Origin: Candidatus Aenigmatarchaeota archaeon
GTDB lineage: Archaea; Aenigmatarchaeota; Aenigmatarchaeia; QMZP01; QMZT01
Direction of reading: 5' to 3'
Assembly: GCA_043808015.1 (NCBI GenBank)
Contig: JAZDFI010000015.1
Coordinates: 1-16,437, forward strand
DNA: 16,437 nt
Of the stretch, positions 1,263-4,495 are shown in pieces. The notes beneath the pieces were generated by a model. It did not search any database. It was given only the letters and a program-made list of their open reading frames with translations, and was not told where the DNA came from. How positions within the stretch are numbered: position 1 is the stretch's first letter; each line of letters begins with the position of its first letter. Position numbers and translations under genes: made by a program.

Positions 1263-2297
1263 TCAGTACATCTGGATGCCGAGATCCTTACTGAACAGCT
1301 TGTCGACTTTCTTCGTCTCCTCGGTCTTGCTGCCCAGGATGTATGGCGAGCTGACGCCTGTTATTATCGTTATGACCTGAAGCTTGCCCTTGAATTCCGG
1401 CAGGACACGCGCGCCCCACATGACCGTCGCGTCTGGATTCATCTTCTTCGACACGGTTTCGCCGATAAGGCTTACCTCTTCGAGCGTGAGATCGTCGCCG
1501 CCGATTATCTGTATCAGCGCGCCTGTCGCACCGTCGTAGTCGACGTCGAGCAGCGGGTGGTTCAGGGCGTTGTCTATCGCTTCCTTCGCCCTGTGCTTCG
1601 TGTCCGAGATTCCGACTCCGATCGTCGCCACGCCTCCGGAATGCATTATCGCCTTGACGTCCGCATAGTCGAGGTTCACCAGCGACGGCTGCGAAATCGT
1701 TTCCGTCACGCCTTTGATCATCGTGGCTATGAGGTTGTCCGCGACCGCGAACGCCTCGCTAAGCGGCTTCTGGCCGGCGAGCTCGAGAAGCTTCTGGTTC
1801 TCTATAACAATGACAGTGTCGCACGCGTCGCGCAGCTTCATGAGGCCGTCCTCCGCCTTTCGTATGCGCGCGCCTTCCATTTTGAAAGGCAGCGTGACGG
1901 GAGCGATTACGATGGAACCGAGCTCCTTCGCCATCTTTGCTATGGCAGGTGCGCTTCCTGTTCCGGTTCCGCCACCGAGGCCGCAGGACACGAAAAGCAG
2001 GTCGCAACCCTTGAGGACGTCTTTTATGGCGTCCTTCGATTCCTCAGCAGCCTTTCTGCCAACATCCGGGAATCCGCCGGCGCCCATGCCCCTGGTAAGC
2101 TCCTTGCCGATAAGAATCTTCTTGTGAGCCTTCGTGACCGCGAGATGCTTCGCGTCCGTGTTGACCGCGACCGTGGTCGCGCCCTTTATGTCCATCTCGG
2201 TAAGCCTTGTTATGGTGTTGCTTCCCCCGCCGCCGCAACCGAAAACCATTATCTTTGCCTGATAGGCATCAAAAACTTCACTTGCATCCGGACACAT
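1263..2297 (-). CDS. ftsZ: Cell division GTPase FtsZ, archaeal FtsZ2-like
   Basis: GCGGGGSN, AVNTD, tubulin signature GGGTGTG, T7 loop PSLVNLDYADV. The PSL..LDYAD pattern is typical of FtsZ2 rather than FtsZ1 (PGL..LDFAD). ATG 2297 is preferred over GTG 2303 from the GGGGGTG SD spacing. Confidence 0.97.
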   Translation of the reverse strand: MCPDASEVFDAYQAKIMVFGCGGGGSNTITRLTEMDIKGATTVAVNTDAKHLAVTKAHKKILIGKELTRGMGAGGFPDVGRKAAEESKDAIKDVLKGCDLLFVSCGLGGGTGTGSAPAIAKMAKELGSIVIAPVTLPFKMEGARIRKAEDGLMKLRDACDTVIVIENQKLLELAGQKPLSEAFAVADNLIATMIKGVTETISQPSLVNLDYADVKAIMHSGGVATIGVGISDTKHRAKEAIDNALNHPLLDVDYDGATGALIQIIGGDDLTLEEVSLIGETVSKKMNPDATVMWGARVLPEFKGKLQVITIITGVSSPYILGSKTEETKKVDKLFSKDLGIQMY

Positions 2298-2412
2298 ACA
2301 CACACCCCCGACAAACGCAAAACACGCTCATTGAGCGCATTTTGATGAACCTGATATATTATATTTAACTATTTGTATATCTACATATTTAAAAATTTAA
2401 GCGGACCAGGCA

Positions 2413-2426
2413 GAAAACTTTAAAAA
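2413..2426 (+). promoter_or_regulatory. BRE/TATA promoter for the RHH gene, leaderless spacing
   Basis: GAAAAC followed by TTTAAAAA; the TATA box starts 29 nt before ATG 2448. Confidence 0.5.
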
Positions 2427-2447
2427 GCATGAAAGTATTTATTTACC

Positions 2448-2666
2448 ATGTCTTCAGAGGAACTAAGACAGGAAAAAGTGGAAAAAGCAGAGACCATAAC
2501 GACTACCATAGAGGTTGACAAAGACCTGTTTCTGAAATTCAAGGCGTTCTGCGTTCTCAACGAGACCACTATATCCGGCGAGATAGAGAAACTGCTCAGG
2601 AAGCGAGTCGAACAGATGGCCAACAGGAGCGAGTCGACCATCGTCACGAAGGAATCCAAAGAGTAA
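2448..2666 (+). CDS. Small ribbon-helix-helix (CopG/Arc/ParG-like) DNA-binding protein
   Basis: Beta-ribbon TTTIEVD, helix KDLFLKFKAFCVLN, turn, helix TISGEIEKLLRKRV; 72 aa; has its own TATA box. Confidence 0.75.
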   Translation: MSSEELRQEKVEKAETITTTIEVDKDLFLKFKAFCVLNETTISGEIEKLLRKRVEQMANRSESTIVTKESKE

Positions 2667-3444
2667 TCTGATTCAGCAAGCATTTACTTTTCTTTTATTT
2701 GCAGGTATCCAAATATGAAATAGAGAGAATGAGACTTAATTGTTACCAATTAAAAAGCATTGAAAACTTGACCAAAGATGGCAAATCCTTGCAACATATA
2801 TCAAATATCACAGGCATAAAAAAGACGACTATTTACTACCACACACGAAAACTCAAAGGAAAAAGCATACAGATGCCTCTCATAAGATTCAATTCAGATG
2901 AAAAATTGGGAGAAGCCGTCGGTATATTCACAGGCGACGGCAGTTTATATTTTGAGCCAGGAAGATATCACTATCAGGTTAGAGTGCATTTTGGTATAAA
3001 AAACGTGAACTATTTGAATCATGTTAAAGCTTTATTCGATGCGTCATTTGGTAAAAAATTTCTTATAAAAATGGACGGCCCTAGAAAATTTGTTTTACAG
3101 ATATATTCAAAAGAAATATTTGCTTTTTTCCATGACTTTCTCGATTTCAAAAACCAAGATAAATCAAAAAGTGTGAGTCTGAAAGAGAAATTTTTGAAAA
3201 ACGAGGTCTTTGCCAAAGGTTTTCTAAGAGGTTTGATCGACACGGATGGTACAATATCGAAAACCGAGAACGGCATAAGAATAGCTTTTTACACATCATC
3301 TTACAAACTAGCTCAACAGATATCGTTTTTATTGAACATGTTTGAAATAAAACATGGTATAACATCATCAAGAGAAGGTCAATATAATGTTTATATATTG
3401 AAAAAGGATAACAATAGAATCGTCAAACTACTAAAACCATTTAA
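2667..3444 (+). mobile_element. AT-rich insertion carrying the homing endonuclease-like gene
   Basis: Two sampled 60-nt lines give 28% and 33% GC, against 63% in a sampled ftsZ line. The AT-rich tract ends at the tRNA 5' end. No terminal repeats were seen. Confidence 0.55.
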
Positions 3445-3454
3445 GGGCCGGTAG
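2729..3454 (+). CDS. Free-standing double-motif LAGLIDADG endonuclease-like protein with N-terminal HTH
   Basis: Motifs LGEAVGIFTGDGSL and FLRGLIDTDGTI, both keeping the acidic catalytic residue. HTH-like GKSLQHISNITGIKKTTIYYH. ATG 2729 chosen; the ORF track starts at TTG 2699. The stop TAG at 3452-3454 lies inside the tRNA. Confidence 0.85.
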   Translation: MRLNCYQLKSIENLTKDGKSLQHISNITGIKKTTIYYHTRKLKGKSIQMPLIRFNSDEKLGEAVGIFTGDGSLYFEPGRYHYQVRVHFGIKNVNYLNHVKALFDASFGKKFLIKMDGPRKFVLQIYSKEIFAFFHDFLDFKNQDKSKSVSLKEKFLKNEVFAKGFLRGLIDTDGTISKTENGIRIAFYTSSYKLAQQISFLLNMFEIKHGITSSREGQYNVYILKKDNNRIVKLLKPFKGR

Positions 3455-3554
3455 ATCAGCGGTAGATCGCCACCTTGGCATGGTGGAGAAACCTTGTTTC
3501 TGCAGAAAAGAAACATGGTTCCATAAGCCTCGGGTTCAAATCCCGACCGGTCCA
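3445..3554 (+). tRNA. tRNA-Ala(GGC) with a 38-nt intron
   Basis: Acceptor stem GGGCCGG/CCGGTCC with the Ala identity pair G3:U70 and A73; D-arm GATC-AGCGGTA-GATC; anticodon arm CCACC-TTGGCAT-GGTGG; T-arm TCGGG-TTCAAAT-CCCGA. CCA is not encoded. Confidence 0.95.
3489..3526 (+). other. Archaeal tRNA intron at non-canonical position 45/46 (BHB motif)
   Basis: Central helix GTGG(3483-86)/CCAT(3521-24), 3-nt bulges AGA and AAG, intron helix AACC/GGTT plus TGTTTCT/AGAAACA. Cutting after the second bulge nucleotide on each side restores the normal variable loop AGGCC. Confidence 0.88.
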
Positions 3555-3565
3555 TTGCTTCTTCT

Positions 3566-4495
3566 CTATCCGCCATTGAATAATTTTGTGCTCAGGTATT
3601 TCTCCCCCCTGTCCGGAAATATCACCACTATCGTGCCTCCGCTTATTTTCTTCGCGACTTCGACCGTCGCGTACATCGCGGCCCCGCTGCTCATGCCCAC
3701 GAATATGCCTTCTTCTTTCACGATTCGCCGGGCCCATTCGAAGGCGACTTCGCTGTCGACCGTTATGTTCTCGTCGATTTCGAACGGCCTGTATATCGAC
3801 GGCACCATCGCTTCCTCCATGTTTTTCAGTCCCTGTATGTAATGTCCTTTGTGCGGATAGGCGCAGATTATTTTTATTTTTTTATTCTTCTCTTTCAGGC
3901 CCATGCCTACGCCCATTATCGTTCCCGACGTGCCGATGGCCGAAACCATGTAATCAATTTTGCCGCCGGTGTCGCGCCATATCTCCTCGGCAGTCGTCTT
4001 GTAATGAGCGATCTTGTTATACTCGTTCGAGAACTGGTCGGGCATGAAATATTTTTCAGGGTTCGCGCTCACGAGCTCCCTCGCTTTCCGTATGGCGCCG
4101 TCCGTGCCTTGGCTGGCCTCCGTCAAAGTTATTTTTGCGCCGAACGCCTGTATCATTTTCTGGCGTTCTATCGAGACCGCTGCGCTCATCACTATCTCGA
4201 CTTCGTATCCCTTGACCGCGCCTATCATCGCCAGGCCGATGCCCGTATTGCCTGACGTGGGCTCTATTATCGTTTTTCCGGGAACCAGCACGCCTTCGCT
4301 CTCCGCCTGCTCTATCATTTTCAAGGCGATGCGGTCCTTTATGCTGCCCGTGGGGTTGGTGCCCTCGAATTTCGCGTAAATGGTCACGTTCCTGTTCGGA
4401 TTCAGCCTGTTTATTTTCACAAGCGGCGTGTTGCCTATCGTATCCAGTATATTGTCGTAAGTCCTTTTCGCTCCGTCTTCAGCAGAGTCGTTCAC
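3566..4495 (-). CDS. cysK: PLP-dependent cysteine synthase (O-acetylserine sulfhydrylase, CysK/CysM family)
   Basis: IGNTPLV, NPTGSIKDR (PLP lysine), EPTSGNTGIG, DQFSN, GTSGT, IQGL, GMSSGAA, FPDRGEKYLST. The start is uncertain: GTG 4495 lacks a well-spaced SD. CysK versus CysM cannot be resolved here. Confidence 0.92.
   Translation of the reverse strand: MNDSAEDGAKRTYDNILDTIGNTPLVKINRLNPNRNVTIYAKFEGTNPTGSIKDRIALKMIEQAESEGVLVPGKTIIEPTSGNTGIGLAMIGAVKGYEVEIVMSAAVSIERQKMIQAFGAKITLTEASQGTDGAIRKARELVSANPEKYFMPDQFSNEYNKIAHYKTTAEEIWRDTGGKIDYMVSAIGTSGTIMGVGMGLKEKNKKIKIICAYPHKGHYIQGLKNMEEAMVPSIYRPFEIDENITVDSEVAFEWARRIVKEEGIFVGMSSGAAMYATVEVAKKISGGTIVVIFPDRGEKYLSTKLFNGG

Follow-up and report, generated by a model that had tools for sequence, protein, structure and literature searches.

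This study concerns a gene for a free-standing LAGLIDADG nuclease that ends inside a tRNA-Ala gene on a 16,437-nt stretch of DNA (hereafter, the window) from a Candidatus Aenigmatarchaeota archaeon (contig JAZDFI010000015.1 of assembly GCA_043808015.1). Based on the comparative analysis of the gene, its predicted protein and its relatives, we consider it rather probable that this is an active or recently active homing endonuclease gene, which would belong to a large family of tRNA-docked genes in the DPANN archaea (Diapherotrites, Parvarchaeota, Aenigmarchaeota, Nanoarchaeota and Nanohaloarchaeota) and to a subfamily whose specificity is for the 5' border of tRNA-Ala genes. The evidence that carries this reading comes from the family and fold of the protein, its catalytic residues, the flush position of the gene against the tRNA, the tRNA specificity of its relatives, the presence/absence polymorphism of the gene, its low divergence and its linkage with the tRNA introns in one block. 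The source genome (G000; the window is its contig C15) is that of an Aenigmarchaeota-like DPANN archaeon and was assembled to 0.93 Mb on 39 contigs with a completeness of 90.7%. It was compared with, among others, four genomes of the same genus (G086-G089).

The open reading frame (ORF) of the nuclease is open over the positions 2672-3454, and because its in-frame ATG at 2729 lines up with the first methionine of 13 homologues, the protein was taken to be 241 aa long. In Pfam, the LAGLIDADG_3 family was matched with an E-value of 6.8e-15, while the LAGLIDADG_2 match on residues 74-236 scored 23.5 bits, slightly below the cut-off of 25 bits. An AlphaFold model that was based on an alignment of 15 homologues (predicted local distance difference test 89.4, predicted template modelling score 0.78) had I-DmoI as its top match in Foldseek (E-value 2.3e-9, template modelling score 0.77 on the target), with I-Tsp061I, intein endonucleases, I-SceI and WhiA structures among the other matches. 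A profile search of the PDB with the nuclease family returned PI-PfuI and I-DmoI. The predicted model, Foldseek and Pfam agree on two alpha-beta-beta-alpha-beta-beta-alpha half-domains that would form a DNA-binding saddle; as modelled, the protein has the double-motif LAGLIDADG homing-endonuclease fold with both catalytic aspartates in place. Residues G79, D80 and G81 of motif 1 (P0001 numbering) were unchanged in 15 of the 15 aligned sequences, and D181, D183 and G184 of motif 2 were conserved in at least 90% of the same alignment. Among the homologues that are linked to tRNA-Ala, motif 1 was retained in 27/27 and motif 2 in 26/27, being deleted in L150. The N-terminal helix-turn-helix (HTH) domain was also matched weakly by Pfam HTH_40, by HTH_38 and HTH_7 on the homologues and by PDB 2lvs at the profile positions 2-43. 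The GC content of the ORF was 0.33 compared to 0.52 for the whole contig, and it ran from 0.27 to 0.38 along the AT-rich block compared to 0.52-0.60 in the adjacent genes. The block, which is 778 bp long, contains the LAGLIDADG ORF and no other ORF. An earlier description that was made from the letters of the window alone (the sequence-only reading) had seen here an AT-rich ORF with an HTH and two LAGLIDADG motifs, and the Pfam matches, the model and the base composition bear it out.

The same reading had placed the last codons and the stop codon of the ORF on the first 10 nt of tRNA-Ala and an intron about 35 nt further downstream. Both placements held, as the tRNA match in Rfam starts at 3445 with the stop codon inside it, and a 38-nt insertion begins at 3489 (Table 1). 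The anticodon GGC lies at 3477-3479, the 25-mer at the 5' end of the tRNA occurs once in the G000 assembly, and the tRNA exons are the same in G000, G086, G087 and G088. ARAGORN with its default settings did not detect the tRNA-Ala in the window, and its call of Leu(taa) with the -i option was a miscall; Rfam was used instead. It was also found, as had been claimed, that the ORF lies outside any intron or intein. The ORF precedes base 1 of the tRNA, and the 241-aa frame is not part of a larger protein. No 5' stub of the tRNA was found at the locus upstream of the nuclease gene (p 0.74), the inverted repeats included no long-range processing stem or bulge-helix-bulge (BHB) structure by which the entire ORF could be cut out as a leader, and Rfam returned no family besides tRNA in the window and no group I intron. 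An integrative element of the SSV or pNOB8 type was considered and rejected, as the block holds no integrase and no att repeats of the tRNA sequence.

Among G000 and G086-G089, the sole orthologue of the nuclease was found in G088 with an amino acid identity of 93%. The site is empty in G086 and G087, in which the upstream gene is followed by a spacer of 62 or 112 nt with a TATA-like box and then by the same tRNA exons. The homology between G000 and G086 stops directly after the stop codon of the upstream gene and resumes in the tRNA. These two spacers were homologous to each other (p 0.0015), and the 5' region of the cassette had no significant similarity to either of them (p 0.43 and 0.35). 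The similarity between the ORF's final 60 nt and the promoter region of G086 was not significant either (15/19 matches, p 0.07). An empty site was additionally found in metagenome contigs from two runs, which join position 2665 to 3445 with 71 other letters in between, and other contigs in the runs X2-X4 cover portions of the nuclease gene. At tRNA-Ala(GGC), the nuclease was present in two of the four genus genomes that were compared, and it was found at none of the 30 tRNA-Ala loci that were inspected in further genomes of the order. Between G000 and G088, the synonymous divergence (dS) of the nuclease gene was 0.29 and thus 3-fold lower than that of its flanks, with 0.68 in the upstream gene and 0.88 in FtsZ. 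Between G000 and G086, the dS of the upstream gene was 0.09 (97% identical) compared to 0.72 for FtsZ, and the neighbourhood is therefore a recombination mosaic. Downstream of the tRNA, the DNA identity between these two genomes was 93-97%, depending on the stretch, and the comparison of the window positions 1263-2666 with G086 suggests that the surroundings of the tRNA locus were recently exchanged in a recombination tract. The nuclease gene is polymorphic for presence and absence at one homologous site and bears signs of horizontal spread.

Between G000 and G088, the 241 codons of the nuclease gave a ratio of nonsynonymous to synonymous divergence (omega) of 0.098. This strong purifying selection bears on two further explanations. 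According to one of them, the gene encodes a domesticated LAGLIDADG/HTH protein, WhiA-like or maturase-like, that binds to the tRNA gene or to its transcript, serves as a regulator or a splicing helper and is no longer a mobile nuclease; a domesticated DNA-binding protein had been the alternative of the sequence-only reading. Domestication would suit the low omega, the combination of HTH and LAGLIDADG domains and the WhiA structures among the fold matches, and it has a possible parallel in a paralogue on the contig C22 (C22:5329-6185, minus strand), which lies before tRNA-Ser(GCU) in all four congeners, has a GC content of 0.48 compared to 0.50 for its contig and carries a serine in place of the catalytic aspartate of motif 2. 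The C22 copy is a candidate for a domesticated protein or a nickase. At the equivalent locus of G086, the tRNA-Ser has no intron. The window copy, however, kept both catalytic aspartates, is patchily distributed, is AT-rich compared to the genome and is less diverged than its flanks, which makes its domestication very improbable. The other explanation is that of a decaying relic, i.e., a nuclease that is fixed but inactive and heading for loss, with the intron linked to it by mere neighbourhood. Degenerate relatives do exist, such as L150, which is without motif 2, L011 with its internal stop codon and a LAGLIDADG gene at G000:C8:22066-22815 (plus strand), which has its first motif upstream in another frame and no adjoining tRNA and is probably a frameshifted, decaying copy. 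We give this explanation hardly any credence for the window gene, because its frame is intact, its catalytic residues are conserved and its omega is unlike that of a pseudogene.

A survey of the homologues for adjacency to tRNA genes had been proposed in the sequence-only reading, and such adjacency proved to be recurrent. In G000 itself, five of the nine LAGLIDADG ORFs have their stop within the 5' end of a tRNA that lies on their own strand (Table 1). The tRNAs at two of these loci, C14 and C30, have multiple introns and were missed by both Rfam and ARAGORN; they were recognised by eye and from their orthologues. A sixth ORF, on C13, is located 18 nt after tRNA-Asn. In the order, 40 of 91 genomes had a homologue of the nuclease with an E-value of at most 1e-5. 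Among the 29 non-self loci that were fetched, there were four inteins (frames of more than 1000 aa) and 25 free-standing genes, and in 13 of the latter a tRNA-like gene started between -53 and +4 nt from the stop codon under a strict test that demanded a T arm and 7/7 acceptor pairs. The nuclease's own subfamily has 15 members of 180-269 aa with identities of 33-93%, and their C-termini read KPFK followed by GR, GW, GQ or GLVDQR, which is the 5' sequence of tRNA-Ala in frame.

Similar observations were made in the metagenomes, in which an alignment-based search yielded 80 loci with identities of 29-52%, 75 of which include the stop codon; a search with the nuclease protein alone gave no match. 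Based on the strict heuristic or Rfam, 51 of these 75 homologues abut a tRNA, 29 of them at its 5' end in the sense orientation and 22 at its 3' end in the antisense orientation. The heuristic alone found 25 sense tRNAs at the 5' end (two of them doubtful) and eight antisense tRNAs with their 3' end at the stop codon. From the remaining 42 loci, four with less than 75 nt downstream were left out and 38 were run through Rfam, which added six sense and 14 antisense abutting tRNAs; the rest of the scanned loci comprised three with a tRNA just upstream of the ORF, three with a tRNA that was not flush and 12 without a tRNA in Rfam. All of the adjacency counts are lower bounds, as many of the tRNAs have several introns. 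Moreover, the tRNA beside related nucleases is retained from one family to another, as was seen for tRNA-Gln (C8, L014, L018 and L027) and tRNA-Asp (L013 and L024), and tRNA-Ser(GCU) stands beside related nucleases at seven loci. Because the flush arrangement is repeated at so many loci, it is not a product of chance. The overlap as such is found in other genes as well: at five loci from genomes of the family f6, an HD-domain (YfbR-like) gene stops at the bases 8-10 of tRNA-Ala (L102, L107 and L112) or 1-4 nt before base 1 (L099 and L106). The overlap is therefore a trait of compact genomes and is not specific to the nuclease.

The intron of the tRNA-Ala was delimited by comparison with the uninterrupted variable loops (V loops) of G086 and G087. 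The region folds with -20.9 kcal/mol (z -3.15) into a central helix of 4-5 bp (3483-3487 with 3520-3524) and an inner hairpin of 11 bp, and the splice sites lie in a 3-nt 5' bulge around 3488/3489 and at A3525-A3526, which are unpaired before 3527. Because the outer helix is weak, with just 3 bp and a 3-nt loop opposite, the intron was assigned to the relaxed BHB form. The genome codes for a 395-aa EndA that matches PDB 4fz2, which we take to be the epsilon2 splicing endonuclease of ARMAN-2, from end to end with an E-value of 2e-105. Splicing endonucleases of the epsilon2 type cut non-canonical introns, as is described in PMC5829648. By its predicted fold, the insertion is an archaeal BHB intron, with intron-free orthologues and a suitable predicted splicing endonuclease in the same genome. 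Some metagenome contigs skip exactly the positions 3489-3526, but their sides are short (19-25 letters, 85% likeness). Their probable source is the tRNA-Ala genes of other organisms, and they are only consistent with the intron borders. A stretch of 15 nt within the nuclease ORF (3344-3358) is 87% identical to 3505-3519 of the intron hairpin, maybe by chance in such AT-rich DNA.

The comparison of G000 with G086 showed that, despite identical exons and flanks that are 97% identical, everything differs from the stop codon of the upstream gene to at least the intron at 45/46. In the genus, the two carriers of the nuclease, G000 and G088, have the tRNA-Ala intron at 45/46, G086 has an intron of about 78 nt at 37/38 and G087 one of about 28 nt near 32/33. 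The nuclease-bearing tRNA-Gln has an extra D-loop intron of 43 nt that is absent in G086, and the intron on the anticodon side is common to both. In the case of tRNA-Arg(UCG), the two introns of the carrier are unlike those of all four congeners. Thus, the intron set of the carrier differed from that of the empty allele at 3/3 of the polymorphic loci that were compared with G086. From these carrier-specific intron sets it follows that the nuclease moves as one conversion block with the 5' exon and with whichever intron or introns lie closest.

For the wider comparison, the intron states were scored by eye, and the relations of the nucleases to the intron position were judged from identity ranks together with these states; the samples of carriers and non-carriers were drawn differently and are phylogenetically dependent, and no test statistic is claimed for their comparison. 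After the duplicates and truncated copies (L148, L155 and L166) had been dropped and the unscorable rows (L143, L144 and L149) set aside, 24 tRNA-Ala alleles of carriers remained. Nine of them had a V-loop intron, eight had introns elsewhere only and seven had none. All seven intron-free carriers keep both catalytic motifs. Carriers do not, then, always hold an intron that splits the target, and since some of them have no intron, their immunity must come from the insertion junction. Conversely, the intron at 45/46 occurred without a nuclease in 4/32 nuclease-free tRNA-Ala alleles (G035, G040, G041 and G057), and an empty-site metagenome contig, whose upstream gene differs at 7/266 positions (97% identical), aligns across this intron. 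Introns also differ between species at nearly every tRNA that was compared in the clade.

We propose the following course of events, in which it is inferred that the enzyme cleaves DNA, where it cuts and how the tRNA is expressed. The enzyme would recognise the conserved DNA of the tRNA-Ala gene together with the sequence directly upstream and would cut at or near base 1 of the tRNA in alleles without the nuclease gene. Repair from a carrier allele would copy the gene in, with the upstream gene as the left arm and the 3' part of the tRNA as the right arm, and the insertion would replace the upstream half of the site and render the carrier immune. Such a destruction of the site accounts for both the intron-free carriers and the base-exact flush position at either end of a tRNA. 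The conversion tract would enter the tRNA, so that the 5' exon of the carrier and its intron or introns, here the one at 45/46, would be copied and the introns of the recipient erased. The tRNA itself would be left intact. Its transcription could start at the nuclease promoter and read through, after which RNase P would make the 5' end, and the broad-specificity splicing endonuclease would remove the intron. The nuclease may be transcribed as a near-leaderless mRNA from a T-rich run at 2690-2697 that resembles a TATA box. Alternatively, the tRNA might be transcribed from the TATA-like octamer in the last nuclease codons, which on its sequence is a possible internal promoter (Table 1). A candidate for the RNase P RNA was found at G000:C8:65400-65736 (plus strand), where it matches the whole archaeal model with 56 bits and an E-value of 2e-15.

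Several observations weigh against this proposal. Conservation is poor upstream of tRNA genes, and the spacers of G086 and G087 differ next to the tRNA; a site that includes this upstream sequence would therefore limit the spread of the enzyme. The low dS of the nuclease might in part result from its AT-biased codon usage, and the RNase P RNA match is divergent and lies under Rfam's gathering score of 84 bits. Moreover, V-loop introns were found in 9/24 carriers compared to 4/32 non-carriers of tRNA-Ala, and all four tRNA-Gln carriers, which come from three families, have a D-loop intron at one position compared to about 10/30 non-carriers; both contrasts hint that the introns are possibly more than hitch-hikers.

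These contrasts are also what would be expected under collaborative homing, the mechanism that the sequence-only reading had put forward, in which the nuclease cuts intron-free tRNA-Ala at 45/46, the short BHB intron splits this site and so protects the carrier, and both are co-converted, with the nuclease as the vehicle for the spread of a non-canonical intron. Within the genus, the nuclease was found only together with the 45/46 intron, and both empty alleles are without it, as the empty tRNA-Gln allele of G086 is without the D-loop intron. The exons are the same in the four genomes, so that immunity can come only from the intron or the junction. The nuclease lies beside a gene with a nuclease-less intron, at a distance that was put at 44 nt and is within the reach that is given for this pathway in PMC2790892. 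However, the seven intron-free carriers with intact GDG and DTDG motifs are unexpected in that model, eight more carriers have their introns elsewhere only, and the variation of introns throughout the clade makes a co-occurrence in two related genomes weak evidence. The alleles with the intron and no nuclease, including the near-identical empty-site contig, show the two to be separable, although intron-only alleles are, by contrast, expected under collaborative homing. In this respect, the earlier idea was right in that the nuclease and the intron travel as a block and co-occur within the genus, while in the wider comparison they were in part distributed independently, which that reading had named as a ground for giving the idea up. 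We regard collaborative homing in the strict sense as rather unlikely and favour a homing endonuclease that is kept out of its own allele by the insertion junction.

A different origin is suggested by the locus on C30 (G000:C30:39735-40535, minus strand), where a LAGLIDADG gene for 188 aa stands between the old promoter with the tRNA bases 1-12 and a full tRNA, so that the start of the tRNA forms a 12-nt direct repeat. This layout favours co-transcription and the origin of a nested cassette at that locus. The initiator tRNA-Met gene has three introns, which are located in the D loop, the anticodon loop and the T loop. In G086 (G086:C7:138164-139800), the 5' site of the initiator tRNA is empty, and a different LAGLIDADG gene converges on its 3' end with last codons that are the complement of the acceptor and the T arm. 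The C8, C14 and C30 loci of G000 are likewise empty in G086. Mobile ORFs of the Allomyces atp6 type in fungal mitochondria consist of an endonuclease gene with a replacement gene end, which is fused in frame to a protein gene. They resemble the tRNA-docked genes in that the essential gene stays functional, and they fit the C30 locus with its duplicated tRNA start, while the window locus is without a duplication. A tRNA-Thr(GGU) of Caldiarchaeum subterraneum offers a further parallel: as described for this locus by Sugahara et al. (2012, PMC3293823), the alleles of the population are not all alike, and in one form a 5' fragment of the tRNA is followed by an insertion of 1,868 bp, with an 813-bp ORF that adjoins the tRNA on the same strand, and by a tRNA with a new intron at 24/25. 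The authors proposed that a mobile element brought the new intron, and they took the ORF to encode a putative recombinase from an integrative element of the pNOB8 type; their article does not contain the word LAGLIDADG. By analogy, the window cassette might have been inserted within the tRNA, bringing its own 5' part and intron, with the old stub and promoter since lost. The window locus, however, has neither the upstream fragment reported from Caldiarchaeum in PMC3293823 nor any direct repeat formed by the tRNA end within 2600-3600, and the ancestral spacer is wholly gone and was not displaced. We therefore consider nested replacement quite unlikely for the window, and the copying of the gene into a cut at the tRNA border remains our preferred reading.

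Homing endonucleases have been described in introns, in inteins and in the genomes of phages. Among the archaeal enzymes, I-DmoI, I-Tsp061I and PI-PfuI have the same fold and single-chain, two-motif design as the window nuclease, with both catalytic acidic residues, and like it they are tied to stable-RNA genes. Enzymes of the I-DmoI type reside within BHB introns of rRNA or within inteins, whereas the window nuclease is free-standing, has an additional N-terminal HTH and has its stop codon inside a tRNA. Collaborative homing was reportedly first described for cyanophage psbA and for mobE and the nrdB intron of T4. In phages, such collaborative or trans homing involves a free-standing endonuclease beside a group I intron without an endonuclease, and as these pairs are described in PMC2790892, they resemble the window in both the neighbourhood of a free-standing nuclease and a nuclease-less intron and their inheritance as a block. 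The present case differs from them in its intron, which is of the BHB type, lies in a tRNA and is spliced by proteins, in its host, a cellular archaeon, and in the occurrence of intron-free carriers. Because there are carriers without any intron, the intron is not a general immunity device. SegB of T4 is a free-standing homing endonuclease of the GIY-YIG type in the tRNA cluster of the phage, and it promotes the inheritance of the tRNA region. It differs from the window nuclease in its fold, its phage genome, the lack of introns and the lack of a flush overlap with one tRNA. Our full-text literature searches returned no description of archaeal free-standing LAGLIDADG genes that are docked on tRNA genes; the article that comes nearest is that of Sugahara et al. 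(2012), in which the insertion was taken for an element of the integrase type. What is new here is the target class, the arrangement and, likely, the role in intron turnover; the free-standing homing endonuclease as a type was known.

If the proposed course of events is true, every act of homing replaces the 5' part of the tRNA gene that is hit by the version of the donor and thereby installs, moves or erases short BHB introns. After a later loss of the nuclease gene, the intron would stay in place as a scar and possibly block re-invasion. This would account for orthologous tRNAs of sister species that have different introns at different non-canonical positions, and it would provide a mechanism for the origin and spread of the non-canonical archaeal tRNA introns, perhaps also of tRNA fragments and split genes. 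That the tRNA-docking LAGLIDADG genes are the main engine of tRNA intron turnover in the DPANN archaea is conceivable, if somewhat doubtful. The difference between alleles with and without the block of nuclease and intron makes the gain of archaeal tRNA introns at odd positions a testable matter. Additionally, such loci defeat the standard tRNA finders, which means that the tRNA sets of DPANN archaea are under-called, and the tRNA-docked enzymes are predicted to be compact meganucleases with conserved natural targets, i.e., the tRNA genes.

Table 1. Coordinates of the features of the nuclease/tRNA-Ala locus in the window and of the related loci on other contigs (C) of G000.
Feature	Position	Strand	Remarks
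Upstream gene, 72 aa	2448..2666	+	Borders the variable block on the left
AT-rich 5' region of the cassette	2667..2728	+	Stands where the ancestral spacer and tRNA promoter were; identical stretch in G088
Free-standing LAGLIDADG nuclease gene, 241 aa	2729..3454	+	N-terminal HTH and single-chain double-motif core
HTH, three helices, residues 15-52 of P0001	2741..2854	+	Secondary structure of the AlphaFold model
End of LAGLIDADG motif 1, G-D-G	2933..2941	+	Catalytic Asp codon 2936-2938
End of LAGLIDADG motif 2, D-T-D-G	3239..3250	+	Catalytic Asp codon 3245-3247
TATA-box-like octamer in the last nuclease codons (conserved V-Y-I)	3390..3397	+	About 50 nt before the tRNA
tRNA-Ala(GGC) with G3:U70 pair	3445..3554	+	Rfam RF00005, 55.5 bits, model positions 1-71
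Nuclease stop codon TAG = tRNA bases U8-A9-G10	3452..3454	+	Final 10 nt of the ORF = tRNA bases 1-10
BHB intron, 38 nt, variable loop 45/46	3489..3526	+	Begins 35 nt past the nuclease stop codon
tRNA-docked LAGLIDADG ORFs of G000	C15 (window); C8:33808-34710; C22:5448-6185; C14:40628-41422; C30:39969-40535		
Hairpin leaders just before tRNAs, minus strand	C7 ~37448-37500; C22 ~1885-1935; C6 ~1202-1245; C18 ~23409-23460	-	
Hairpin leaders just before tRNAs, plus strand	C9 ~57505-57552; C29 ~79935-79976; C8 ~67900-67927	+	

As for the neighbouring genes, the 72-aa upstream protein had been taken for a ribbon-helix-helix protein in the sequence-only reading, which found no backing, since no Pfam family was matched by it with an E-value of at most 0.01. 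Beyond the tRNA, a gene for a pyridoxal phosphate (PLP)-dependent enzyme (Pfam PALP) lies at 3566-4495 on the opposite strand, and it is missing from the locus of G088.

Most of the tRNA genes in the whole G000 genome bear introns: with its -i option, ARAGORN made 31 calls and assigned an intron to 24 of them, of which several were wrong. At least two multi-intron tRNAs escape both ARAGORN and Rfam. One ARAGORN call, a tRNA-Glu with a 720-nt intron on C9, was considered as an intron-borne nuclease and proved to be false, as ordinary protein genes lie within it. In G000, a conserved leader stands before no fewer than seven tRNA genes (Table 1); it consists of a GC-rich hairpin and a TTTCG(C/A)T...(C)AC stretch reaching to base 1 of the tRNA, and the copies on C7 and C22 have about 45 near-identical bases in common. 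The motif was also found before the orthologous tRNAs in G086-G089 and is missing at the nuclease-bearing tRNA-Ala. The motif might be a signal for the processing of the leader, or else a repeat element.

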